Shown: in pieces, positions 2,187 through 49,096 of the stretch | Layout of the letters: each line of letters opens with the position of its first letter | Numbering within the stretch: the first letter of the stretch is position 1 | Assembly (NCBI GenBank): GCA_028280785.1 | Contig: JANQLF010000122.1 | Coordinates: 23,627-87,626 of the forward strand | Length of the DNA: 64,000 nt | Direction of reading: 5' to 3' | Source: Planctomycetota bacterium | Lineage (GTDB): Bacteria; Planctomycetota; UBA11346 | Notes under the pieces: model-generated | Seen by the model: only the letters and a program-made list of their open reading frames with translations | Told to the model about the DNA's origin: nothing | Databases searched by the model: none | Made by a program: the position numbers and the translations under genes

Positions 2187-4568
2187 ATGAAGCTAGTTGT
2201 CGTCGAGTCGCCGAATAAAGTTAAAAAGATTCGCTCGTTCTTGGGCAATGATTACAATGTTGGCGCCTCCTTTGGTCATATTCGTGACTTACCAGCTAAG
2301 GGTGATTTGGGGGTCGATTTCAAAGATGGGCACATCGCCCCGCATTATATGGTCACTAAGAAAGACATGGCTTCGCAGTTGCAGCGCTTGGCCAAAGGCG
2401 CTGATGAAATACTTATTGCAACTGACCCGGATCGCGAAGGTGAGGCGATTGGTTGGCATATCGTACAAATCTTGGGTGCTGATAAATTCACTTACAAGCG
2501 CGTGACCTTTAACCAAATTACTAAAAAAGCCGTGCTCGATGCTGTGGCGAATCCAGGCGAATTAAATATGGATTTAGTTAATGCCCAACAAGCTCGTCGC
2601 GTCTTTGACCGAGTTGTCGGTTGGGTGGTTTCACCAACACTGCGACGTGGTGTTGGTAAAAAAGAAGCGCGCAGTGCTGGGCGCGTACAATCAACGGCAT
2701 TGCGTTTAGTTGTAGAACGTGAATTAGCGATTCGTGATTTTGATAATAAAGATTATTTTGAACTGGACGCGCATTTACTTGGCAGCAAAGAACCAGCTTT
2801 TGTTGCGACCTTATTTGAGTGGCAGGGTAAAAAACTTGAGCATCGCCTTACGAGTAAAGAAGAGGCTGAAGCCTTAGTTGAGTCGTGTAAGCCTGGTCCC
2901 TGGTCAATAGAGTCGGTCGATAGAAAAAAATCCAATAAACATGCACCACCGCCGTTTACCACCTCAACAGCCCAGCAGGCAGCGAGTGTTAAATTAAAAC
3001 TTTCTCCTGATCAATGTATGAAGGCATTGCAGGCTTTATTTGAAGCTGGGCACATCACTTATCACCGGACTGACAGCGTATCGTTATCCCCTGAGGCTAT
3101 TAAGGCGGCGCGTGATATTATTCAGAAAAATTACGGTGATGCATATGTGCCAGCCAAAGCGAACCAGCACAAATCAAAAGTTGCCAATGCTCAGGAGGCA
3201 CACGAGGCTATTCGACCCACACATCCTGAACACGGTGCGCAAAATGATCAGGTCAAAGCACATCGCGATGTCTATGAATTAATCTGGCAACGTTATATCG
3301 CCTCGCAAATGGCTGCCGGTGTTGATGATGTTACGGTCTACACCGTTAAAACAGAGAGTAATGATCAGGTACGTTTCCGCACTCGTGGCAGTGTGTGTAT
3401 TTTTGATGGTTGGCGTAAAATCGGTGATGATAGCACCAGCGAAAAGAAAAACGCTAAAGACCAAGATGCCAAGCCGCTGCCAGAATTAGTGGCTGGTGAA
3501 ACATTACAGCTACAAGATCTTAAATTAAATAAAAAGACCACGAAACCACCGCCACGCTATACCCAAGCCTCATTAATTAAAGAAATGGAAAAACGTGGTA
3601 TCGGTCGGCCGTCAACCTATGCCAGCATTATGAAAACTATCATCGATCGCACCTATGTTTTTGAGCAAAAACGAAAACTGCATGCGAGCGATCTTGGTAT
3701 CGATGTTTGTCAGTGGCTTATTAATCATTACCAAGGTAACTTTATTGAAATTGAATATACCTCGGCAATGGAAGAGCGCCTTGATGCGATGAGTCGTGGT
3801 GAGCTTAATTGGGAATCAGCCATTACTGAAGAGTCAGAGCTTTTGGTTTCGATTTCACAGAAAGCAGGTCTGAGTTACAATCCTTTATCCGGTGAAAAAC
3901 CTCAGCCAGCAAAACCAGTGGAGGGTATGCATTGTCCGACTTGCAATGGACCAATGCGCGCAATTAAAAGTGCCCATGGTGAATTTTACGGTTGCATGGA
4001 TTATCCTAAATGCAAAGGAACGCGCCCGGGTAAGGAGCAGGCTGAAGCAGAAAAAAATGCACCAGCCTGTCCTTTGTGTGAAAGCCCAATGCGTTATCGC
4101 AAAAGTGCTCACGGTGCATTTTGGGGCTGCAGTCAGTATCCCAAGTGCAAGGGTCTGCGAAATGTAGACGGCGAAGATAAAAGCCCAAGCAATGATACGA
4201 AAAAATCCTCATCAAAAAAGAAAACGACTAAGCAAACTGTTAATAAAGATGTGCAGTGTCCGCAATGTCAAAAACCTATGCGCCTAGTGCCTGAAAAGGA
4301 AGGGAAGTATAAGGCTTTTTGGTCATGCACTGAATATCCGAAATGCAAAGGCACTCGCCAACACGAAGACGAAACAAAGACTAAAGCTAAGACTAAAACT
4401 AAGTCCAAGAATAATACACAGGCTAAAACAAAGCCTCAAACAAATAACAATGTTTCGCCAGCATGCCCAGAATGCGGTTCAGAAATGTATCGCGTGCCTG
4501 CGCAAAATGGTAAACCAGAACATTATACCTGTTGTCATGCACCAGATTGTTCTGGTACCATTACATAA
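2187..4568 (+). CDS. topA: DNA topoisomerase I (type IA) with four C-terminal Cys4 zinc ribbons
   Basis: 793 aa. N-terminal Toprim (VVVESPNKVKKI), active-site region ITYHRTDS, then four CPxC...C..C zinc ribbons separated by Lys/Thr-rich linkers. Confidence 0.85.
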   Translation: MKLVVVESPNKVKKIRSFLGNDYNVGASFGHIRDLPAKGDLGVDFKDGHIAPHYMVTKKDMASQLQRLAKGADEILIATDPDREGEAIGWHIVQILGADKFTYKRVTFNQITKKAVLDAVANPGELNMDLVNAQQARRVFDRVVGWVVSPTLRRGVGKKEARSAGRVQSTALRLVVERELAIRDFDNKDYFELDAHLLGSKEPAFVATLFEWQGKKLEHRLTSKEEAEALVESCKPGPWSIESVDRKKSNKHAPPPFTTSTAQQAASVKLKLSPDQCMKALQALFEAGHITYHRTDSVSLSPEAIKAARDIIQKNYGDAYVPAKANQHKSKVANAQEAHEAIRPTHPEHGAQNDQVKAHRDVYELIWQRYIASQMAAGVDDVTVYTVKTESNDQVRFRTRGSVCIFDGWRKIGDDSTSEKKNAKDQDAKPLPELVAGETLQLQDLKLNKKTTKPPPRYTQASLIKEMEKRGIGRPSTYASIMKTIIDRTYVFEQKRKLHASDLGIDVCQWLINHYQGNFIEIEYTSAMEERLDAMSRGELNWESAITEESELLVSISQKAGLSYNPLSGEKPQPAKPVEGMHCPTCNGPMRAIKSAHGEFYGCMDYPKCKGTRPGKEQAEAEKNAPACPLCESPMRYRKSAHGAFWGCSQYPKCKGLRNVDGEDKSPSNDTKKSSSKKKTTKQTVNKDVQCPQCQKPMRLVPEKEGKYKAFWSCTEYPKCKGTRQHEDETKTKAKTKTKSKNNTQAKTKPQTNNNVSPACPECGSEMYRVPAQNGKPEHYTCCHAPDCSGTIT

Positions 4569-4608
4569 ACCAAAAGATTAGTTTCTTACAGATTTTTTTA
4601 GATAATCT

Positions 4609-5988
4609 TTGGGAATGAATAGAAAAAACGTCTTATTTATTGCAGTCGATGATTTACGTACCCAGCTTGGTTGCTATGGCATGGATTGGGTACATTCACC
4701 TCATATTGATGCCCTAGCTGCTGCTGGAACCGTATTTGAGCGTGCCTATTGTCAGCAGGCAATTTGTGGACCGTCGCGTGCGAGTGTCTTGTCTGGTTGT
4801 CGACCTGATACGAACGGTGTCCATGATTTGCAAACACAGTTACGTGAGGCGATGCCAGATGTACTGAGTCTGCCAGAGCATTTTAAAAACAATGGCTACG
4901 AAACTATTTCAATAGGCAAAATTTATCATCACAAGAATGACGATTTACAGGGTTGGTCAAAGGAACCGTTTCAATCCAAGGGTGATTGGCAGGGTCGTGG
5001 TTATTTAACTGATGAGGCGATCGAAACTATAGCGCAAGGGGATAAAGAGCGCGAACAACATGGCGATAAACGCCGCGGTTTAGGACCTGCATTTGAAGCA
5101 GCTGATGTTGCGGATGAAGATTATCACGATGGTAAAGATGCCTTGGCTGCCATTGAGGAATTAAATCGCTTAAAAACACTTGATAAACCATTTTTTCTTG
5201 GGTTAGGATTTCATAAACCACATTTGCCGTTTAATGCGCCCAAGCGTTATTGGGATATGTATAATGCTGAATCGCTACCATTAGCAAAGAATCCATTTTT
5301 CCCCAAAGGAATTACAGAATATTCATTAGCTGATTTTGGTGAGTTACGTGGTTATTTTGGTGTGCCGAAAGAGGGGCCGATTCCAGATGAATTTGCACGT
5401 CAATTAATACATGGTTACTGTGCCTGTGTGACCTATATGGACGCACAACTGGGTAAAGTTATTCAACATCTCAAAGATTTAAACCTCTATGATAATACGA
5501 TTATTGTATTATGGGGCGATCATGGTTGGAAATTAGGTGAGCATAATTCGTGGTGTAAGCATTCTAATTTTGAAATTGATACACAGGCGCCACTAATCGC
5601 CGTTGATCCATCGATCCAGCAAAATAGGACCGCGGCTTTAGTAGAGTTCATTGATATGTATCCGAGTTTGTGTGAGCTCTGTAATATTGAAATTCCTGAA
5701 CAATGTGAGGGCCAAAGTTTTGTGTCGCTTATGCATGATGGAGGAGCGCCTTGGCGTGATACCGCATTAAGTCAGTACCCACGCGGTGACGTTATGGGTT
5801 ATACGATGCGTACTGATCGTTACCGCTATACCGAATGGTTAAATAAATCGGACAATGCATTGCGTGCGAGGGAATTATATGATCACCAGGTCGATGATCA
5901 GGAAAACGAGAATATCGCAGAATCAGCAGATGAAGCCTTATTAGTTCAGCTTTCGGCGCAGTTGCATCAGGGTTGGAATATTACTTAA
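4609..5988 (+). CDS. sulfatase (formylglycine-dependent, iduronate-2-sulfatase-like)
   Basis: 459 aa; C-x-P-S-R sulfatase signature CGPSRAS at aa 53-59; VDDLR metal-binding start; no obvious signal peptide. Confidence 0.8.
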   Translation: MGMNRKNVLFIAVDDLRTQLGCYGMDWVHSPHIDALAAAGTVFERAYCQQAICGPSRASVLSGCRPDTNGVHDLQTQLREAMPDVLSLPEHFKNNGYETISIGKIYHHKNDDLQGWSKEPFQSKGDWQGRGYLTDEAIETIAQGDKEREQHGDKRRGLGPAFEAADVADEDYHDGKDALAAIEELNRLKTLDKPFFLGLGFHKPHLPFNAPKRYWDMYNAESLPLAKNPFFPKGITEYSLADFGELRGYFGVPKEGPIPDEFARQLIHGYCACVTYMDAQLGKVIQHLKDLNLYDNTIIVLWGDHGWKLGEHNSWCKHSNFEIDTQAPLIAVDPSIQQNRTAALVEFIDMYPSLCELCNIEIPEQCEGQSFVSLMHDGGAPWRDTALSQYPRGDVMGYTMRTDRYRYTEWLNKSDNALRARELYDHQVDDQENENIAESADEALLVQLSAQLHQGWNIT

Positions 5989-11673: not shown

Positions 11674-11955
11674 TTGGAACAGTTGACTACGATCTCAGCA
11701 AAGTATCACTGCTATCGAAAGTCTGATGAAGCAATGAAGATACGTCCACCATCCCTCGGCATGTTTGCTGCCCTGACCTGCATTTTCGCCCTGATCTCGA
11801 TCACTGGCGTCATGCTCTACTTCACCACTGGTAGTGTCGAAGGTCTTTATATTGGCGGCGGAGCCTCCGCCTTCATCTTCATAGGTAGCTTTTTCGCCAT
11901 ATTCCTATCCTTCATGCTGCTTGCTAAGGGCATCATCAAGAAGGGCAAATCTTAA
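11674..11955 (+). CDS. small membrane protein
   Basis: 93 aa, two TM helices. Confidence 0.35.
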   Translation: MEQLTTISAKYHCYRKSDEAMKIRPPSLGMFAALTCIFALISITGVMLYFTTGSVEGLYIGGGASAFIFIGSFFAIFLSFMLLAKGIIKKGKS

Positions 11956-12043: not shown

Positions 12044-12120
12044 GCGGGTGTAGCTCAGTTGGCTAGAGCGACAGCTTGCCATGCTGTAGGTCGTGAGTTC
12101 GAGTCTCATCACCCGCTCCA
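12044..12120 (+). tRNA. tRNA-Gly (anticodon GCC) with encoded CCA
   Basis: 77 nt cloverleaf folded by hand: acceptor stem GCGGGTG/CACCCGC, D-arm GCTC/GAGC, anticodon stem ACAGC/GCTGT with loop TTGCCAT, T-arm GTGAG/CTCAT with loop TTCGAGT, discriminator T, CCA. Confidence 0.85.
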
Positions 12121-30177: not shown

Positions 30178-30225
30178 CTTGCCATGCTGTAGGTCGTGAG
30201 TTCGAGTCTCATCACCCGCTCCAAA
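30178..30225 (+). repeat. attR: 48 bp copy of tRNA-Gly 3' part
   Basis: Exact copy of 12075-12122. Confidence 0.85.
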
Positions 30226-30226
30226 G

Positions 30227-30262
30227 AAAAAGCCCTTCGATTATTCGAAGGGCTTTTTCTTT
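30227..30262 (+). terminator. rho-independent terminator (probable original tRNA-Gly terminator)
   Basis: AGCCCTTCG-ATTAT-CGAAGGGCT perfect hairpin followed by TTTTT. Confidence 0.7.
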
Positions 30263-31756: not shown

Positions 31757-33007
31757 TTATACCTTCATCAGGCTTTCAATAGCCTTGATGCTCTTTGGAA
31801 TAGCCTTGGTCAATTCTTCACAGCCATCTTTGGTGATGAGTAGATCATCCTCAATGCGTATACCGATACTTTCATCAGCGAGGTAAACGCCGGGTTCGTT
31901 GCTGATGATCATGCCGGGAGCGAGTGGAATATTGTAATCACTTGGATCGTGAACATCCATGCCGATGTGGTGACTGAGTCCATGATGACGTTTGAGGCCC
32001 GCGTCTAAAATAGGTTGCCAGGCAATTTCATTTAATTCATTGATGGTAATACCCGGACGAGCGTGCTTACGGCCGAGTTTATTACAGTGCAATACTAATG
32101 CATATAATTCGCGATAACGCTTGTTGGTGAATTTACCGCTAATAGGTGCACAGCGAGTAACGTCTGCGCAATACGAGCCAAAAGTGGCGCCGGAATCAAT
32201 GAGGATGCCTTTGCGTTTATCGAGTGGTTGGTCGTTATGTGGGTAATGCAGTGTTGCTGCATTAAGGCCACAACCGACGATACTTGAAAATGCTAGCGGC
32301 TCGTGATGGGGACTCACATAATGTTGTAAGAGACAGCTGGCGATTTCAGATTCGTTTTTAAAAGTCGGAATTAATGGCAGTGTCTTTTTTAATCCGTGTT
32401 CGGTAATTTTAATTGCTTTGCGGTGTAAAGCTATTTCATCCTTGTCTTTAATCATGCGCATTGGGGTAAGTGCTGGCTCACCATTGAGCACTTCAATGCC
32501 GCGAAGTTTTTTCTTCCAAACGTCAAACTGAGCTGATTGAAAACCTGGTTCTTTATCACGAGACAACATAACAATTTTACCACGTGCACGTTTGGCTGCA
32601 TCGTGAATGTGATTCACGATATCGTGAACATCCCCAGTTTGGTCAACGCCAAAAGCTTTTTTGGCAGCAGTACCTGGTTGCAATTTTGGGCCTTCCCAAA
32701 TAACTCGTGCTGGATCTCCGGGATCAAGTAAAAGTAAATCGCGTTGTTTTGCTTTTGGATCAATTAACAGTGCAGCACCTGGTTCGTGACAACCACTAAA
32801 ATAATCAAACCATTGGTCCTGACGCGGAGCACCAGCAACGGGTGTGCGCATGGTTGAAAGATCTTCTTCTGGACAGCCAATCAAAAGAAGGGGGACCTGT
32901 TTGCCGAAAGCTTTCTGTAGCAAGCGAATAGCCTTACTGCGTCGACGACGATAGGTGCTGAGAGGAAGAGATCTGCCGCGAATAACCATGATGGTAGTGT
33001 GTGGCAT
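31757..33007 (-). CDS. Xaa-Pro aminopeptidase (M24 family)
   Basis: 416 aa; M24 metal ligand blocks HGLSHHIGMDVHD and ISNEPGVY...IRIEDD. Confidence 0.75.
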   Translation of the reverse strand: MPHTTIMVIRGRSLPLSTYRRRRSKAIRLLQKAFGKQVPLLLIGCPEEDLSTMRTPVAGAPRQDQWFDYFSGCHEPGAALLIDPKAKQRDLLLLDPGDPARVIWEGPKLQPGTAAKKAFGVDQTGDVHDIVNHIHDAAKRARGKIVMLSRDKEPGFQSAQFDVWKKKLRGIEVLNGEPALTPMRMIKDKDEIALHRKAIKITEHGLKKTLPLIPTFKNESEIASCLLQHYVSPHHEPLAFSSIVGCGLNAATLHYPHNDQPLDKRKGILIDSGATFGSYCADVTRCAPISGKFTNKRYRELYALVLHCNKLGRKHARPGITINELNEIAWQPILDAGLKRHHGLSHHIGMDVHDPSDYNIPLAPGMIISNEPGVYLADESIGIRIEDDLLITKDGCEELTKAIPKSIKAIESLMKV

Positions 33008-34672: not shown

Positions 34673-35965
34673 GTGGCTGAACAAATCGATAGTGCCCCCG
34701 TCAAAGGTGTTCGTGATTTCTATCCCGATGACATGCGCGTGCGCAATTGGTTGTTTGAGCATTGGCGTGCAGTAGCCAAGCAATTTGGCTATGAAGAGTA
34801 CGATGCTTGTGTGCTCGAATCTGAATCGCTGTATGTGCGTAAGGCTGGTGATGAAATAGTTGGTCAACTATATAATTTTGCTGATAAAGGTGATCGTAAG
34901 GTTGCATTGCGACCAGAAATGACACCAAGTTTGGCACGTATGGTTTTAGCCAAGAAAAATAGTTTAGCCTTTCCACTGCGTTGGTTTTCCATTCCACAAT
35001 GTTTCCGTTACGAACGCATGCAAAAAGGTCGTAAACGTGAGCACTTTCAATGGAATATGGATTGCATCGGTTTAGACAGCGTTGCCGCAGAGGTCGAGTT
35101 AATGTCTGCGCAGGTGGCATTTTTACAGAATGTCGGTTTCCAAGTCAGTGCAGAGAAATGTGACATCGCATTTAAAGTTTCAAATCGTCAGGTCCTCCAG
35201 GATTATTTAGCAACATTAAATATCACTGGCGAAGATTTTGCCGCGGTCTGTGTCATTATCGATAAGCGTGATAAAATTGGTGATGAAGCTTGCGCTGAAT
35301 TATTGGCAGAAAAAAATGTCGATGGAGAAACTGCAGGGAAGATCCTCGATTTATTAAATGTTCGTGGGCTCGACGATTTAGCACGGGTAGCAGGCGAGGA
35401 AAATGCCGGTTATCAATCATTAAAAGCATTAATGGAATTAGCAGAAGCAAGTGGTATTGCTCATGCCATTCAAATCGATTGTTCTGTGGTGCGCGGTCTG
35501 TCGTATTATACCGGAACCGTCTGGGAATTATTCGATGAATCTGGATCGGTGCCACGCGCCATCGCCGGTGGCGGTCGCTATGATCGTTTAATGGAAACCT
35601 TTGGTGGCCAATCAGTGCCAATGGTAGGTTTTGGTTTTGGTGATGTGGTTATTGCATTATTGCTCGAAGAGCGCGGACTTATTCCTAACTCCGATGCACG
35701 TGTTGATGATTATATTTATCCAATGAATGAATCGGGTTTTGTTATTGCCAATAAAATTGCTGCAAAGCTTCGCACAGATGGTCAGAAAGTTTTAGTCGAT
35801 TATTCCTGTCGCCGCTTCAAACACGTGATTAAAGCGGCAGAAAACGCAGGCGCATCACGGATGTTTACCCTAGGTGATCAAGAAATTGAAGCGGGTATTG
35901 TTAAGGTTCGTACCATTGGTGCCGAACGCGTAGAAAACGACCATCCAATTTCAGAATTTACCTAG
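34673..35965 (+). CDS. hisS: histidine--tRNA ligase
   Basis: 430 aa; GVRDF, motif 2 FRYERMQKGRKREHFQWNMD and class II motif 3 region; GTG start at 34673 (in-frame ATG at 34652 is also possible). Confidence 0.85.
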   Translation: MAEQIDSAPVKGVRDFYPDDMRVRNWLFEHWRAVAKQFGYEEYDACVLESESLYVRKAGDEIVGQLYNFADKGDRKVALRPEMTPSLARMVLAKKNSLAFPLRWFSIPQCFRYERMQKGRKREHFQWNMDCIGLDSVAAEVELMSAQVAFLQNVGFQVSAEKCDIAFKVSNRQVLQDYLATLNITGEDFAAVCVIIDKRDKIGDEACAELLAEKNVDGETAGKILDLLNVRGLDDLARVAGEENAGYQSLKALMELAEASGIAHAIQIDCSVVRGLSYYTGTVWELFDESGSVPRAIAGGGRYDRLMETFGGQSVPMVGFGFGDVVIALLLEERGLIPNSDARVDDYIYPMNESGFVIANKIAAKLRTDGQKVLVDYSCRRFKHVIKAAENAGASRMFTLGDQEIEAGIVKVRTIGAERVENDHPISEFT

Positions 35966-36089
35966 TGTCGCTGTTGCTGACGCCGAGTGACGGTCGTGGC
36001 TATTTGCCACGAATTTTTCATAGCGAAAGCGGAGAAAAATAGAAACGACAAAGTCAGCGAGGGGCTTGGGGCATTGCCCCAAAACAAAA
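35966..36089 (+). repeat. REP-like repeat family member (124 bp copy)
   Basis: Homologous along its length to 44847-44957 and to the right half of 48800-49096; ends with hairpin GGGGCATTGCCCC then AAAACAAAAG. Confidence 0.6.
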
Positions 36090-36131
36090 GGACGTATTGA
36101 GAAAGATCATCAAATTAGCGAATTCTCTTAA
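36090..36131 (+). other. orphan diverged copy of hisS 3' end (14 codons incl. stop)
   Basis: Translates GRIEKDHQISEFS* versus native AERVENDHPISEFT*; several identical residues use different codons (Ser TCA vs AGC). Confidence 0.5.
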
Positions 36132-36142
36132 ATTTTAATTTC

Positions 36143-36259
36143 TCTCACGGAGGCACGGAGCCACAGAGGGATTAAAAAATTGTGTTTATTTATATAAGTT
36201 ACCTTTTGTTTTGACGATTTAGATGGGAAATGCTTTTAAATCTCCGTGCCTCTGTGAGA
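36143..36259. repeat. 18 bp inverted repeat pair separated by 81 bp
   Basis: TCTCACGGAGGCACGGAG at 36143-36160 and CTCCGTGCCTCTGTGAGA at 36242-36259 (1 mismatch); right arm ends 7 bp from AraC-family gene stop. Confidence 0.5.
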
Positions 36260-36265
36260 ATTTAT

Positions 36266-37147
36266 TTAAGTTAATAAATTTTGGGATAGCCGACGTTGTT
36301 TGGCGCGAATTAACTTCGGTTGATAGGTTCCTGCTTTAATATCGATACGATACTGTTTTGGCGATACTTTATACTGTTGTTTAAATGCACGTGAAAAATG
36401 AAATTGATTTTCAAAGCCACATTCTTCAGCAATGTCTTGCACACTGATATCACTACGTGCTAAAATCATGGCGGCGTGGTCTAAACGAATATTGCGCAGA
36501 CATTGTGCCGGACTGACACCGAGTTCTTGCTTAAAGATGCGCACTAAGTGGCCACGTGATACATCAATAGCTGCGGCAATCTCTTCAACGGCGGGACTGT
36601 GCATGCCATGCAATTGCCATTGATTGCGTACGTAGTCCATTGATTTGCTGATTATGGGATGCTCTTCGATGCCAGTTTCAACGGACACACCTTGAGCACG
36701 CTCATAAATAAAACACAAGAGTGCATGTTTTAAACCTTGCACGGCTAAGGTTTGACTAATGCGATCATCGGCCTGGGCGGTGTAGATGACGTGATTCAGT
36801 AAACGAATTAAAAATTGTTCTTCACCGCATTGAATAATGCGTGGCCAATCACGTGGATTACCGAGGACGTGATTTTTATCCTCAATTTCAAAATGAATAA
36901 AACCGTGGCGAGTGCGTTTACCAGGATCCCAAATAAATGAATCAGTTTCACCTGGACGACATAAACACACGCTGCCTGCAGGCATGGCATAGCGTTCGTC
37001 GTCGGCTATCCACTCGACATCGCCACTGACAATCCATACGAATTCGTAGTTGGTGCAGTGGCGCGGTCCAAAGCTGGCTCCGGCTGGATAATCGGCGACG
37101 CCCATGGAATTGGCATGCTGAACGAGGATGTGATCGAGGCCAATCAT
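36266..37147 (-). CDS. AraC-family transcriptional regulator (N-terminal cupin + C-terminal AraC HTH)
   Basis: 293 aa; C-terminal DIAEECGFENQFHFSRAFKQQYKVSPKQYR. Confidence 0.75.
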   Translation of the reverse strand: MIGLDHILVQHANSMGVADYPAGASFGPRHCTNYEFVWIVSGDVEWIADDERYAMPAGSVCLCRPGETDSFIWDPGKRTRHGFIHFEIEDKNHVLGNPRDWPRIIQCGEEQFLIRLLNHVIYTAQADDRISQTLAVQGLKHALLCFIYERAQGVSVETGIEEHPIISKSMDYVRNQWQLHGMHSPAVEEIAAAIDVSRGHLVRIFKQELGVSPAQCLRNIRLDHAAMILARSDISVQDIAEECGFENQFHFSRAFKQQYKVSPKQYRIDIKAGTYQPKLIRAKQRRLSQNLLT

Positions 37148-39412: not shown

Positions 39413-39493
39413 TTAGCGTTGAAATCGTCGTTCTAACTCTGTCCACGATAGATCTAATGTGGTCGGACGACCATGCGGACAATGTTCCATGTG
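39413..39493 (-). other. orphan recoded copy of mutL 3' end (26 codons + stop)
   Basis: Minus-strand translation HMEHCPHGRPTTLDLSWTELERRFQR* is identical to the MutL C-terminus; 17 of 81 nt differ from 39597-39677, all synonymous. Confidence 0.8.
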
Positions 39494-39596
39494 GCTTTTT
39501 GTTTCGAGACTCCGTCTCGGGCTCTGCGCCTTAAAATATCTCAAGAGCCAAGCTCATTATTGAAATATTTTAATGCTTCACGAACACATGGAACGT
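39494..39596 (-). repeat. REP-like repeat family member (103 bp copy)
   Basis: Reverse complement ends ...GGCGCAGAGCCCGAGACGGAGTCTCGAAACAAAAAG, homologous to the ends of the other copies; contains CAATAATGAG motif. Confidence 0.55.
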
Positions 39597-41417
39597 TTAT
39601 CTTTGAAACCTGCGCTCTAGCTCGGTCCAACTTAGGTCTAATGTTGTCGGTCGCCCATGTGGACAATGTTCCATGTGTTCTAACGTATATAATAATTTGA
39701 CTAGGTTGCGTTGTTCGGCTTCGGAGAGTTTATCGCCAGCTTTGACGGCGCGGTGACAGCTGGCGCTGTGAGCAATGCGTTTACGAATGGCTTCGATGCT
39801 TTTGTCTTTATTGCCATCTTCGGCCATGCTTTCGAAAAAACCTTGCCAATTTATTTTTTTCAAAGCGAGCGGATGGGAGCGTAATAAAATAGTGGTTGGA
39901 CCAAAACATTCGGCTTCGATGCCATGTTCACCCAGACTTTCCAATAGCGGCTCAAGCACAGCAACTTCTGCAGCGCTTAATTCAATATTCTTAGGAACCA
40001 ATAATTCCTGACGCCCACTGCCTTCAAAGTCGGTGACGCTGGGGTCTAAACACAAAAATATGGATTTTTCATGGAGGGCATGTTGATCGACTAAGCGAAT
40101 GCCGAGCTCGGTTTCAATGAGCAAATACATATCATTTAATTGTACAATGCGACGAATGCCGGGTAGGTCATCATTACTGTCGACAGCGTAGGTGCTTTGT
40201 TGTTCAGCAACGGTACTGGTGTCGATGGTTTCTTGTGCTGGCATTTGTGGGACGAAGCGCTCTTGTAGTGCTTCTTGCTGATCTTCTGCTGCTTTAACCA
40301 CCGTACGTTTTACAATGTCATCGCCGCTTGTTACCGGTGAGTTCGGTGCAACGGGAGGTGGGCTCGTTAATTCAGGCGCTGCTGCGGTGTGCAGCATATT
40401 GAATCCACCACTGTTTTTTTCGAGAACTTCACGGATGGCATTGCGTAATATTTTAAATATCTCTCGATCATTGCGGAAGCGAACTTCTGCCTTCGTTGGA
40501 TGCACATTCACATCAATCAATTTTGGATCAGTGTCGATGTGAATAAAAACTGGCGGGTGTAGGCGTGGTTCCAAAAAACCACGATATGCTTCGCGAATGG
40601 CTGCAATGATTAATTTGTCTTTAATATAGCGACCGTTTAAAAAAACGAACTGTCGCTTGGCGCGTGGCTTCGCTTCGCTTGGGTGTGATGCGTAACCGGT
40701 TATTTGCGTGGTATAGCTGTGTCCGTCTATGGCAAATAATTGATCGGTAACATTTTTACCAAATATCGCTCGAATGCGTTGTCCAAGGTGATCGTGAACA
40801 GGCAAGTCGTGAATGACTTTATCGCCGGCAATTAATTCAAAGGCAATGTGCGGATGACTTAAAGCCATGCGCTGAACCACATCGGTAATATGACCAGCTT
40901 CAGCGCTTGGAGATTTGAGGAATTTTAATCGCGCAGGTACATTCCAAAATAAATTTCGAACCGTAACCTTCGTGCCCGGGGCCATGGAACAGGCTTGGAC
41001 ATCTTGAATCTCGCTGCCATGCACGCGCAGCGCATAACCACTGTCATTGTCATGGGTACGGCTGGCAATTTCAAATTCAGAAACAGCAGCAATAGAAGGC
41101 AGTGCTTCGCCGCGAAATCCTAAAGAGTTTATGGCAAACAAATCGTCAGCTGCTTGTAGTTTTGAGGTGGCATGCCGACTCAGGGCGAGAGGTAAATCAT
41201 CTTTGTTGATGCCGTGACCATTATCGGCAATGCTTAATAAATGCTGACCACCATCAGCCATGTGAATGGTGATTTGTGTAGCCCCTGCATCGATACTGTT
41301 TTCAATAAGTTCTTTGGCGACAGCAGCTGGGCGTTCAATGACTTCGCCAGCAGCAATCTTATTGGCGATGTCATCACTGAGTTGATGAATCTGCGGTGGT
41401 TTAGTCTTCAATGTCAT
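39597..41417 (-). CDS. mutL: DNA mismatch repair protein MutL
   Basis: 606 aa; GHKL ATPase blocks (ELIENSIDAGA, DNGHGI), C-terminal dimerisation domain. Confidence 0.85.
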   Translation of the reverse strand: MTLKTKPPQIHQLSDDIANKIAAGEVIERPAAVAKELIENSIDAGATQITIHMADGGQHLLSIADNGHGINKDDLPLALSRHATSKLQAADDLFAINSLGFRGEALPSIAAVSEFEIASRTHDNDSGYALRVHGSEIQDVQACSMAPGTKVTVRNLFWNVPARLKFLKSPSAEAGHITDVVQRMALSHPHIAFELIAGDKVIHDLPVHDHLGQRIRAIFGKNVTDQLFAIDGHSYTTQITGYASHPSEAKPRAKRQFVFLNGRYIKDKLIIAAIREAYRGFLEPRLHPPVFIHIDTDPKLIDVNVHPTKAEVRFRNDREIFKILRNAIREVLEKNSGGFNMLHTAAAPELTSPPPVAPNSPVTSGDDIVKRTVVKAAEDQQEALQERFVPQMPAQETIDTSTVAEQQSTYAVDSNDDLPGIRRIVQLNDMYLLIETELGIRLVDQHALHEKSIFLCLDPSVTDFEGSGRQELLVPKNIELSAAEVAVLEPLLESLGEHGIEAECFGPTTILLRSHPLALKKINWQGFFESMAEDGNKDKSIEAIRKRIAHSASCHRAVKAGDKLSEAEQRNLVKLLYTLEHMEHCPHGRPTTLDLSWTELERRFQR

Positions 41418-43250: not shown

Positions 43251-44846
43251 ATGATTACTGCTTCAGAAATCACCGTCGCCTTTGGCGAAAAGCCACTCTA
43301 TGAAAATGTTAGTCTGCGCTTAACCGCAGGTAACTGCTATGGTTTTATTGGTGCAAATGGCTGCGGTAAAACGACCTTTATCAAGGTACTGTCTGGTGAA
43401 ATGGAGCAGAACGCAGGTACGGTCACCTTGGATCCCGGCATGCGTATGGCCACCTTAAAGCAAAATCAATTTGGTTATGAAGATCAAAAAGTCATGGATG
43501 TGGTTTTGCAAGGTTATGAAGAAGTATGGCAGTTGCAGTTGGATATGGACGCCTTGTATGCTAAAGAAGATTTTTCTGATGCTGATGGTGAGAAAGTTGC
43601 AAAGTTACAAGAACGCTACGATGAATTAGATGGCTATTCGCAAGAATCGAATGCCGCTGAAGTATTAACCAATCTTGGTGTGAGCCCTGATGTACATAAC
43701 AGTGCGATGTCTGAAATAGATGCCACGTTGAAGGTGCGTGTTTTATTAGCTCAAGTAATTTTCTCGCGGCCAGATGTATTGTTGCTCGACGAGCCAACTA
43801 ATAACTTGGACATTGAAACCATCGCCTGGCTTGAAAAATTCTTGGCAGATTACGAAGGTTGTATTGCCGTAGTGAGCCATGACCGACACTTTTTAAACCG
43901 TGTTTGTACCCATGTCTGCGATGTTGATTTTCAAACAATCCGAACATTTGTTGGGAATTGGGATGTATACGCAGCATCCGAAGCACTTGCTCGTGCGCAG
44001 CGCAGTAAAGAAAAAGCACGTGTTGATAAGCAAGTGGAAAAATTAAAGAGCTTTGTCCAGCGTTTTAAAGCCAATGCATCGCGTTCGAAGCAAGCGACGA
44101 GTCGTATGAAGCAAATCGACGCACTCGGTTCACAACAAGTCTTACCATCAAGTCGCGTGGCTCCGCGTATTAATTTTAAACAAGAACGTGAAAGTGGTCA
44201 GGATATTATTAAAGCTGAAGGCCTCAGTTTTAAATACGATGATGGTCCCGAAATTTGTAATGATTTAGATCTGCGCTTGGAAAAGGGTGAGCGCTTGGCG
44301 ATTGTTGGTCGTAACGGTATTGGTAAAACCAGTATTATTAAATTGCTCAATAATGAATTAACACCGCAAGCAGGATCAGTGACCCTTGGTGGAACCATTA
44401 AAGTCGGTTACTTCCCACAAGACAGTCGTCATCTGTTTGAAAAAGACATCGATATTGTGACGTGGTTGCAGCAGTTCACGGACAACCAGGACATCAATAA
44501 CATGCGCGCGATGCTCGGTCGCATGCTCTTCTCGGGTGACGATGTGAAGAAATCGGTAACTGTGCTTTCGGGTGGTGAAAAGGTGCGTTGTTTGATGTCG
44601 ATGCTGATGCTTCAAGAAGCCAACTTGCTGATCTTAGACGAACCGACTAACCACTTGGATTTGGAATCGATCGAAGCTCTCCAGGAAGCCTTGGAAGAGT
44701 TCAAAGGTAGCATCATCTTTGTCAGCCATGACCGTGAATTCGTTGACCACGTCGCCAGCCGCGCCCTGGTTATGACCGACGAGGAGGGCATCGTCGATTG
44801 GCGAGGTACTTACTCTGAATACCGCGACTCAAAGGGCCTGGATTAG
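43251..44846 (+). CDS. ABC-F family ATPase (EttA/Uup-like, two ABC domains, no TMD)
   Basis: 531 aa; two Walker A (GANGCGKTT, GRNGIGKTS), two signatures (LSGGEKVR...), inter-domain linker. Confidence 0.8.
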   Translation: MITASEITVAFGEKPLYENVSLRLTAGNCYGFIGANGCGKTTFIKVLSGEMEQNAGTVTLDPGMRMATLKQNQFGYEDQKVMDVVLQGYEEVWQLQLDMDALYAKEDFSDADGEKVAKLQERYDELDGYSQESNAAEVLTNLGVSPDVHNSAMSEIDATLKVRVLLAQVIFSRPDVLLLDEPTNNLDIETIAWLEKFLADYEGCIAVVSHDRHFLNRVCTHVCDVDFQTIRTFVGNWDVYAASEALARAQRSKEKARVDKQVEKLKSFVQRFKANASRSKQATSRMKQIDALGSQQVLPSSRVAPRINFKQERESGQDIIKAEGLSFKYDDGPEICNDLDLRLEKGERLAIVGRNGIGKTSIIKLLNNELTPQAGSVTLGGTIKVGYFPQDSRHLFEKDIDIVTWLQQFTDNQDINNMRAMLGRMLFSGDDVKKSVTVLSGGEKVRCLMSMLMLQEANLLILDEPTNHLDLESIEALQEALEEFKGSIIFVSHDREFVDHVASRALVMTDEEGIVDWRGTYSEYRDSKGLD

Positions 44847-44957
44847 AAATCTATTCCAGACGCCGAGAGCCGTTCAGGCCTACTTGGCCTGACATTTTCG
44901 TAGATAATGAGGATCGACAAAGTCTGCGGGGTCCGGGGCAGAGCCCCGAAACAAAAA
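44847..44957 (+). repeat. REP-like repeat family member (111 bp copy)
   Basis: Hairpins CAGGCCTACTTGGCCTG and CGGGGCAGAGCCCCG; ends AAACAAAAA; homologous to 35966-36089 and 48970-49096. Confidence 0.6.
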
Positions 44958-45005
44958 AGGCGTGGTACATATTCTGAATACCGCGACTCAAAAGGCTTGG
45001 ATTAG
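44958..45005 (+). other. orphan recoded copy of ABC-F gene 3' end (15 codons + stop)
   Basis: Translates RRGTYSEYRDSKGLD* versus native WRGTYSEYRDSKGLD*; 5 synonymous differences (CGA/CGT, ACT/ACA, TAC/TAT, AAG/AAA, CTG/TTG) around a 20 bp identical core. Confidence 0.75.
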
Positions 45006-45084
45006 AGGGTAAGTAAGCCCGAAGCTGCAGTCCAGTAGTTGCTTAGGTTGGATTTGAACTAGCATCTCGCCTCCACTGATTGAG

Positions 45085-45513
45085 GTGGCAAAGGAAGGAC
45101 GAGCTATGAAGCGCATAATAGCACTGTCGGCTATGACGAGTACCTACGTGATGGGTGCCGGTGAAGATCTCACTGCACCAGTTCCAGCAGGACCAGAAAA
45201 CGGTCAGGACCAAAGCCAACAAGCACCGGGCGGAATGGGTTTCCCATTCTTCATGCTCATTTTGATGTTGGTCTTCATGTACTTCGTCTTGATTCGTCCA
45301 CAAAATAAAGAGCAGCGTCGTCGTCGTGGTATGATGGATGATCTCAAGGTTGGTGACATGGTCGTGACCATCGGTGGTCTCCATGGTGAGGTTGCGCGCA
45401 AAGGTGAGAACGACATAGATCTCAAAGTCGCTGAAAATACAGTCATGACCTTTAACCTTGGTGCGGTTAACCAGGTGGTTAAAGACGGCGAAAAATTAAA
45501 CGGTCAAGAATAG
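45085..45513 (+). CDS. yajC: preprotein translocase subunit YajC
   Basis: 142 aa (GTG start; may start later); FVLIRPQNKEQRRRR...KVGDMVVTIGGLHGEV typical YajC. Confidence 0.7.
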   Translation: MAKEGRAMKRIIALSAMTSTYVMGAGEDLTAPVPAGPENGQDQSQQAPGGMGFPFFMLILMLVFMYFVLIRPQNKEQRRRRGMMDDLKVGDMVVTIGGLHGEVARKGENDIDLKVAENTVMTFNLGAVNQVVKDGEKLNGQE

Positions 45514-48799: not shown

Positions 48800-49096
48800 G
48801 TTTCGAGGGGCTCTGCCCCTCGTGCTCCCCCGCGACGGTTGCACGGTCAAGCCGCATCAAGATCGCGACTATTTTTCTCCGTTTAGAACTGCGAAAAATC
48901 CAGGTCAAGTAGACCTGACCGTCGCTCGGTCGTAGCCGGTTGCAGAAGCAACCGAAGAGCGCGCCGAGTTCTCGAGGCGGCGAGCACCGATGAATGGTCT
49001 GAGCTATATGCGAAGAATTTTTCGTAGCGTCAGCGTAGAAAAATAATGAAGACAACGCTCGCGGGGGAGCCCGAGGGGCAGAGCCCCTCGAAATAA
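48800..49096 (+). repeat. full-length BIME/MITE-like element with 35 bp terminal inverted repeats
   Basis: TTTCGAGGGGCTCTGCCCCTCGTGCTCCCCCGCGA at 48801-48835 versus reverse complement of 49059-49093 (1 mismatch). Several internal hairpins. Fills the exact interval between the secDF stop and the convergent regulator stop. Confidence 0.65.

Follow-up and report, generated by a model that had tools for sequence, protein, structure and literature searches.

A probably displaced second end of hisS behind a folded repeat in an uncultured Planctomycetota genome, and a candidate route for the import of gene tails

We analysed a 64,000-nucleotide (64-kb) stretch of contig JANQLF010000122.1 from an uncultured member of the Planctomycetota—called the window here, in its full length—in which the histidine-tRNA ligase gene hisS is followed by a folded repeat and, beyond that repeat, by a second, diverged version of the gene's own end. 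As now translated, hisS spans positions 34673..35965 on the forward strand and encodes 430 aa, an assignment made from its open reading frame (ORF) and from 8000 HisRS homologues with PF13393/PF00587/PF03129, the nearest relatives being 84% identical. The last codons, GCC GAA CGC GTA GAA AAC GAC CAT CCA ATT TCA GAA TTT ACC TAG, encode AERVENDHPISEFT*, and the part that concerns us, the working tail U (35924..35965, forward strand), comprises ERVENDHPISEFT and the TAG stop. Directly 3' of this stop lies a 124-nt member of a repeat family, as the original prediction had it (35966-36089; nhmmer E=5e-32 with a hidden Markov model (HMM) from five window copies). Alignment of copies divides it into an 11-nt leader that runs from the stop codon to the conserved element start (35966..35976, forward strand; TGTCGCTGTTG) and the structured element proper, E (35977..36089, forward strand), supported by the nhmmer match, its fold and compensatory changes. 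At hisS, E consists of a closing stem CTGAC/GTCAG, three internal hairpins, a terminal GC hairpin (36067-36081) and the tail AAAACAAAAG. The only ORFs of at least 30 aa that overlap the insert—35987-36100 on the forward strand (37 aa), and 35951-36082 and 35962-36087 on the reverse strand (43 and 41 aa)—lack conserved counterparts in the other copies.

Adjoining the fixed 3' end of the element, exactly as at the mutL and ABC-F genes described below, is an untranslated segment D (36090..36131, forward strand; G/E-RIEKDHQISEFS followed by TAA) that we read as the displaced former hisS tail. Its codons, GGA CGT ATT GAG AAA GAT CAT CAA ATT AGC GAA TTC TCT TAA, encode GRIEKDHQISEFS* in a reading frame that is +1 relative to hisS, and alignments of copies showed no similarity between the leader and the DNA 3' of D. 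The claim of a diverged second hisS end beyond the repeat was thus upheld, as were the contrasts in codon choice (Ser TCA vs AGC, Arg CGC vs CGT, stop TAG vs TAA); its extent and degree needed correction. The copy covers 13 codons and the stop rather than the last 14 codons, and literal translation gives 8/13 identical residues (R,E,D,H,I,S,E,F) instead of nine; a ninth requires reading the junction codon as native GA|A (Glu), whose first bases the element end would supply. At the nucleotide level 27/42 positions are identical, and the 15/42 that differ are spread over the whole length of the segment, without a long identical core.

The resemblance between U and D at hisS exceeds chance under randomisation: when the 400 nt downstream were shuffled 20,000 times with dinucleotide composition preserved, a single shuffle attained 27/42 nt and none attained 8 aa with an aligned stop (the best reached 7). 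When 43 long ORF tails were each compared with their own downstream DNA, matches above 22/42 were found only for hisS, mutL, and ABC-F. An artefact—chance similarity, or a chimeric metagenome assembly joining two strain variants of the hisS end—merits consideration here, since the window belongs to a metagenome-assembled genome and assemblies typically go wrong at repeats. It is countered by the shuffle tests and by the independent Logan assembly of SRR20820735 (L001), in which the entire hisS junction is reproduced base for base; the same architecture also occurs in four other assemblies from two ENA samples (ERZ25074695, ERZ25043436), and a chimeric join would need a k-mer common to the 3' end of E and the gene body, where none exists. 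We consider such an artefact extremely improbable.

The same U-E-D layout occurs twice more in the window, at the two genes for which the original prediction had placed it. At mutL (39597-41417, reverse strand), the working tail of 26 codons and TAA (39597..39677, reverse strand) is followed by a mutL-type element, E_m (39494..39596, reverse strand; nhmmer E=3e-11, fold), and by a displaced tail that encodes HMEHCPHGRPTTLDLSWTELERRFQR* (39413..39493, reverse strand). E_m has the 3' module ...GAGCCCGAGACGGAGTCTCGAAACAAAAAGC in common with the main family, and homologues of it are present at mutL in L130, L131 and L132; these and the other relatives mentioned throughout as comparative evidence are fetched loci of related Planctomycetota (labels L002-L005 and L129-L135). 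At the ABC-F gene (ORF 43251-44846), the working tail (44802..44846, forward strand) precedes a main-family element with a 10-nt leader (44847..44958, forward strand; nhmmer E=2e-25, fold), then a displaced tail (44959..45005, forward strand), native flank and yajC (45058-45513). The two mutL tails are 80% identical over 81 nt, with their first 17-26 nt identical, and the two ABC-F tails (44800-44847 vs 44959-45006) are 90% identical over 48 nt; at hisS and ABC-F the two copies share nothing past the stop codons.

The character of these differences bears on how the copies arose. All 16/16 differences at mutL and all 5/5 at ABC-F are synonymous, and a random-substitution test rejected unconstrained change at each gene (mutL P<5e-6, ABC-F P=5e-4, hisS P=6e-4, the last with 5 residue changes in 15 differences and the stop kept). 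Displaced tails are intact in 7/7 cases. Because the differences are mostly silent and the stops are kept, the copies evidently diverged while each was a working gene end, in different lineages. Of two reasons offered earlier for the greater divergence at hisS, an older event therefore finds no support in the modest number of residue changes, whereas a more distant donor fits, helped by the fact that the HisRS C-terminus is a fast-evolving stretch: the HisRS tails of relatives differ from one another at 15-17/42 nt. A long target-site duplication, made when E transposed into hisS and followed by divergence of both copies in place, would account for the geometry [X..Y]-E-[X..Y] and for the varied repeat lengths (42, 48, 81-97 nt), as in some retroelement insertions; it nevertheless predicts that the silent copy changes about four times faster and mostly at non-synonymous positions, where we counted 0/16 at mutL, 0/5 at ABC-F and, at hisS, the 5 residue changes already given, with every stop retained, and it sits badly with copies that have nothing in common past the hisS and ABC-F stops. 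We judge it very improbable. Still closer to nil is the chance that D is the template repeat and U the variable repeat of a diversity-generating retroelement (DGR). A diverged, non-coding downstream copy of a gene 3' end is a DGR hallmark, yet the mismatches are not bound to adenine (5/15 at hisS on either copy, with all four bases hit), the targets are housekeeping enzymes, and two of the three pairs encode identical peptides; moreover, the annotated window ORFs include no reverse transcriptase and no transposase, their only recombinases being two phage-type integrases in a tRNA-Gly island.

The element common to the three loci is a folded repeat of ~105-125 nt whose fixed 3' end is a hairpin followed by GAAACAAAAAG. 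Copies have in common a 5' CGCCGA motif, a variable first hairpin, an ATTTTTC/GAAAAAT stem, GACAAAG, and a GC hairpin leading into GAAACAAAAAG, together with the conserved module GCGGAGCCCGAGGCAGAGCCTCGAAACAAAAAG; element length ranges over 103-148 nt and the number of helices over 3-4. The closing stem varies among CTGAC/GTCAG, CAGAC/GTCTG and CAAAC/GTTTG, and across ten copies compensatory changes affect this stem, the first hairpin and the terminal hairpin, with double changes in 11/18 predicted pairs. The hisS copy has a predicted RNA fold of -48.1 kcal/mol (z=-4.5). Rfam yielded no family for E at gathering or permissive thresholds (best hits in 35800-36300 have E>3), its only gathering-level match in the window being tRNA-Gly.

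Five copies of E lie in the window, and about 80 kb from relatives contain more than 10, all of them at gene ends: the start of E is commonly 0-17 nt from a stop codon, and antisense copies lie 0-9 nt from the stop codon of the neighbouring gene in 6/6 cases, in keeping with REPs, the repetitive extragenic palindromes discussed below (PMC3733652). Two main-family copies in the window stand head to head (48801-48948, reverse strand, and 48968-49096, forward strand; nhmmer), filling the gap between the convergent secDF and sigma-54 activator genes; the 3' end of each touches a stop codon from the antisense side, and neither is accompanied by a tail duplication. The gap between hisS and its convergent AraC-family neighbour (36266-37147, reverse strand; Pfam) holds one forward copy in L002 and four tandem reversed copies in L003, variation from which we conclude that the family is mobile and the gap a hot spot. 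The four L003 copies occupy 2752-3140, 3' of hisS, and a further two lie at 5042-5230, 3' of PhyH; such tandem copies are joined end to start (...AAAAG|CTCGCG...), which suggests that the element inserts beside its own 3' end. On the opposite strand, the unrelated genes for PhyH (L003 5035-5063) and the fumarase C-terminal subunit (L132 5154-5164) have a common 11-nt end, GGGTTAGGCTG, adjoining the 3' end of E, and the element may in this way supply the last codons and stop of antisense neighbours. Pattern scans for E across public collections gave one hit in genome contigs (a chance match within a GC-rich ORF), 120 hits in metagenome contigs of which 0 were recognised by the element HMM, and no hits in viral contigs; the scans being unproductive, we followed the family through protein-anchored loci only.

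Among the relatives, hisS has a single tail in L002, L003, L004, L005 and L133—in L002 as the simple state in which tail, leader and E occur without D—and ABC-F in L129, L130 and L135 (80-86% identical) has one tail and no element, as expected of empty sites. At mutL, the U-E-D layout recurs in three related populations (L130, L131, L132), always at the same codon (..GAA|CAYATGG) and with the mutL-specific element subfamily. Ten mutL tails, five of them displaced, all encode HMEHCPHGRPTTLDLSWTELERRFQR and a stop (26 aa) exactly, at a DNA identity of only 75-88%. The layout is also stacked and polymorphic. L130 reads T_a-E_a-T_b, and L132, a second contig from the same sample with a shared part that is 98.4% identical, reads T_c-E_c-T_a-E_a-T_b, that is, three tails and two elements. 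Identity between the two mutL bodies is 99.8% across the 600 nt that precede the junction and 100% across the last ~700 aligned columns, and what separates the contigs is precisely a single 184-nt tail+element unit that intervenes between gene body and next tail. Because E_c and E_a differ throughout the central hairpin, the extra unit is not a fresh internal duplication. In a scan of all fetched loci, tail repeats were found only at these genes and always with an element. The newest and oldest mutL tails of L132 (4503-4583 vs 4870-4950) are identical at 78/81 positions, and a short patch in the newest matches the middle tail, which suggests gene conversion among the stacked tails. Attempts to trace origins from the sequences gave little: mutL tails are about equally distant from one another (61-71 of 81) with synonymous sites saturated, leaving the tail phylogeny uninformative as to a donor, and the sliding identity of the hisS 3' part to L002-L005 revealed no change of pattern and no recombination tract.

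The anatomy alone cannot tell the new tail from the old, U-E-D being symmetric, and we turned to codon usage for the direction. The genome is AT-biased (GC content at third codon positions 0.39), and across the 23 synonymously differing codons of the three genes D holds the commoner codon at a ratio of 16:7 (summed ln ratio +13.5, sign-flip P=0.011), with the sign favouring D as native-like in hisS, mutL and ABC-F alike. The codons of the working mutL tail are atypical (GGG, CGA, CTA, AGG, AGA), with a log likelihood of -36.7 that lies at the 0th percentile and is the worst of 8 distinct mutL tails, and the displaced tail is the best fit to the genome among the same 8. Since D has native-like codon usage and U does not, the unit of tail and E looks imported and D native.

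The reverse direction, with a native U and with E and a foreign hisS tail D arriving together immediately behind the native stop, is unlikely in our view, though still deserving of weight. It profits from the symmetry of the layout, which leaves the newer repeat undecided by anatomy, from the common position of E starts 0-17 nt after a stop codon, and from the match of U to the L002 tail (31/42), about as close as that of the gene body (76%), where D matches at only 23/42. It conflicts with the codon usage of this genome and with the L130/L132 comparison, in which the difference is tail-then-element and the removal of element-then-tail from L132 would not yield L130. In addition, a donor of the form 'E then tail' exists only within U-E-D, whereas 'tail then E' is the simple state seen in L002.

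Taking these lines of evidence together, we favour the reading that 36090-36131 is the resident former end of hisS, displaced by an imported tail-plus-E cassette of ~166 nt through a process recurrent in this Planctomycetota group, and we place its probability at roughly 0.58. The cassette would comprise the last 13 codons and stop of a hisS gene from another lineage, the 11-nt leader and the ~113-nt folded element; it would have entered after hisS codon 417, so that hisS now ends in a U that presumably came in together with E, with the old tail left untranslated directly 3' of the fixed element end (hairpin-GAAACAAAAAG). On this model an empty hisS allele should end ...GAERIEKDHQISEFS* and continue into the flank from 36132 onwards, a donor-type allele should end ...ERVENDHPISEFT* followed by leader and E, and some hisS genes would be expected to end ...ERIEKDHQISEFS.

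Several observations weigh against this reading or narrow it. U-E-D at hisS is known from this genome only, no relative is closer than 84% in HisRS identity, and the empty hisS allele and the donor both went unobserved. The codon signal for hisS alone is weak (+0.88, 6 codons) and not significant by itself, and the direction test is non-significant in L130 and L131, where codon bias is weaker. Orthology of the hisS elements of the window and L002 was considered and rejected: they are 77% identical, the same as any two copies, so that a common 'hisS cassette lineage' is unsupported. The insertion points have no motif in common and thus give no sign of a site-specific enzyme step, and no gene for a transposase of the kind discussed next lies in the 64-kb window, the link to it being adjacency in one relative. 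Finally, the constant mutL position across lineages may reflect a joint inherited by ordinary homologous recombination rather than re-made.

The enzyme in question is suggested by L134, where a 199-aa ORF (4176-4775) directly 3' of mutL matches NF047646, the REP-associated tyrosine transposase (RAYT) family, at 83.3 bits (cut-off 80), as well as PF01797 (Y1_Tnp), and has the motifs HVH and YIENNP. Downstream of this gene is a degenerate E-like sequence that ends in GAAACAACAAGC, and because such a gene adjoins an E-like copy 3' of mutL in a relative, the earlier description of the repeat as REP-like (resembling repetitive extragenic palindromes, REPs) is apt. Within L134 4176-5161 the transposase gene is overlapped by a 129-aa ORF without a family match, and the pair occupies the exact place of the tail+element units in other lineages.

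The insertion mechanism that we infer begins with E landing just past a stop codon, as REPs do, and so becoming physically linked to a gene tail. By the preferred route, single-stranded DNA from a relative would be taken up and would pair with the conserved gene on its left side; given the seamless reading frame, homology with the gene must have resolved that side. The right joint invariably falls at the element 3' end and could be made in two ways: a RAYT-type Y1 (HUH) transposase acting in trans could join the 3' end of E to single-stranded target near the end of homologous pairing, in which case cutting of single-stranded E would be expected at or near AAACAAAAAG, or a circularised or repeat-flanked unit could recombine within the tail repeat. 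The direct tail repeats around the hairpin-rich E would allow units to be lost again through slippage or recombination. Such loss should be easy and would leave mainly young cases, with intact displaced tails, to be observed.

A bolder form of the imported-cassette reading, which we advance tentatively and consider possible but doubtful, holds that the unit is a selfish 'home-and-rescue' cassette—a gene-less, RAYT-mobilised miniature element that colonises the 3' ends of hisS, mutL and ABC-F by means of a synonymously diverged replacement tail. The invaded gene would stay functional, the gene itself would serve as the homing address between species, and stacks of displaced tails would record successive invasions. 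A different explanation is that both tails are selected in place, either because tail and E are excised at the DNA level so frequently that D regularly becomes the working tail, or because D serves a separate purpose; a structured E transcript could, for instance, carry it as a guide-like 3' extension by which unoccupied alleles are marked. This would make sense of the 7/7 intact displaced tails, of tails as diverged within genomes as between them, without homogenisation, and of unit-sized polymorphism between co-occurring strains; some guide RNAs carry the guide 3' of the scaffold, and the scaffold-then-flank layout here may be said to resemble theirs. We nonetheless find it improbable: neither excision products nor transcription are in evidence, E copies without D are common, and the identity of the first 17-26 nt of U and D at mutL would leave U unprotected from a D-derived guide. 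Read-through translation of D was discarded, as D is off-frame to U at hisS and mutL. Other candidates were also set aside—a CRISPR-like repeat-spacer arrangement (no second repeat), an integron attC or Xer site (no matching boxes), and insertion of E at a first position followed by repair from a donor with E as right homology arm, which is too contrived for a mutL-specific subfamily.

Further features of the window stand apart from this argument. Between D and the AraC-family gene lies an unrelated element (36143..36259, ~117 nt) that resembles a miniature inverted-repeat transposable element (MITE), with 18-nt terminal inverted repeats (TCTCACGGAGGCACGGAG, 17/18 match). A similar MITE occurs 3' of hisS in L133 (about 1660-1800), yet BLAST found no significant flank homology, and the flank 3' of D thus offers no proof of ancestry. 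The gene for an M24 peptidase has an orphan diverged copy of its last 13 codons and stop (11693-11737, forward strand, vs 31757-31798, reverse strand; SQQSITAIESLMKQ vs PKSIKAIESLMKV, 30/42 nt). This copy is 20 kb off and on the opposite strand, immediately preceding a small membrane ORF and the tRNA-Gly island; no E adjoins it, and it may have been left by a rearrangement or by another event of tail displacement. The island itself is a classical integrated defence island in a tRNA gene: the 3' half of tRNA-Gly(GCC) (12044-12120) is repeated at 30178-30235 (95%), and the intervening ~18 kb encode two tyrosine integrases, a TIR-domain protein, a DUF927 protein, an AAA/SMC-like ATPase and a 1676-aa Type ISP restriction-modification enzyme. 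A 34-nt direct repeat present three times in ORF 2187-4568 (3993-4359) corresponds to C4 zinc-ribbon modules of DNA topoisomerase I and is ordinary.

REP-like repeats are usually viewed as passive intergenic passengers, whereas here a gene-less repeat of ~100 nt is repeatedly joined to what appears to be a swapped-in end of an essential gene, in tail+element units that co-occurring strains gain or lose and that can be stacked three deep. The U-E-D pattern points to a little-known way for tiny repeats to enter essential genes without breaking them. If units do move between lineages, core genes would be open to horizontal replacement through a hidden channel, among them mutL, the mismatch-repair gene on whose state recombination between species itself depends; the units would also be a source of silent mosaicism that would mislead phylogenies built from gene ends. 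They would likewise provide a minimal natural model for DNA insertion into an essential gene without loss of function, as well as a tractable, enzyme-linked example for the unexplained 'insertion with long target duplication' considered below. Should the 'home-and-rescue' idea hold, it would represent a third route to harmless insertion into essential genes, beside splicing (introns, inteins) and integrase-borne replacement ends.

Four known systems invite comparison. REPs are multi-copy extragenic hairpins at gene 3' ends or between convergent genes, in tandem or inverted pairs and often touching stops (PMC3733652). E resembles REP/REPIN-RAYT systems as a short, multi-copy extragenic hairpin element at gene 3' ends; in one relative a putative RAYT-family gene lies adjacent to a degenerate E-like copy. 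E differs in being 3-5 times longer than a REP, in its multi-branch fold, and in lacking a conserved GTAG or CGTC tetranucleotide at the base of a palindrome of 20-40 nt. Tail duplication or replacement by REP-like repeats is absent from the REP survey (PMC3733652, where 'duplication' appears 0 times), and our literature searches found no description of it.

Single-strand hairpin ends, a Y1 transposase and no short target duplication are features of the IS608 paradigm. E may be likened to IS200/IS605-derived miniatures (PATEs) in its hairpin about 10 nt before the right end, a putative Y1 enzyme in trans and the lack of a short target duplication, but it has no left-end copy of the terminal hairpin, and its left flanks (GTTG, ATTC, TAGG, AAAG) contain no conserved target tetra- or pentanucleotide.

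A parallel in logic is e14/phage 21 in E. coli icd, where an element-borne tail finishes the gene and the resident tail (the icdC fragment) remains as a direct repeat beyond, the two repeats differing mainly at synonymous sites and excision recombining both (PMC13626634). Islands in tRNA genes follow a similar logic, the tRNA-Gly island of this window being a classical example. At the genes described here the insert likewise appears to provide the working end and to have left the resident end as a direct repeat beyond it, a direction supported by codon usage. The insert, however, is 103-124 nt long, gene-less and without an integrase; one repeat family is found at three unrelated target genes, with units stacked in tandem; and no identical core is obligatory (none at hisS, the first 17-26 nt at mutL).

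Lastly, the 'insertion with long target duplication' of Nobusato, Furuta and Kobayashi concerns restriction-modification genes, mostly in competent bacteria, that are inserted without a mobility gene between slightly differing direct repeats of >30 bp matching a single-copy target, sometimes a gene 3' end, by a mechanism that is unresolved (PMC2853133). Our loci have in common with these the direct repeats of >30 bp, the single copy in empty-site relatives and the absence of a mobility gene inside; the known inserts are kilobase-sized gene units between near-identical repeats, whereas those described here are a miniature structured repeat with one fixed end and strong synonymous divergence between its flanking tails.

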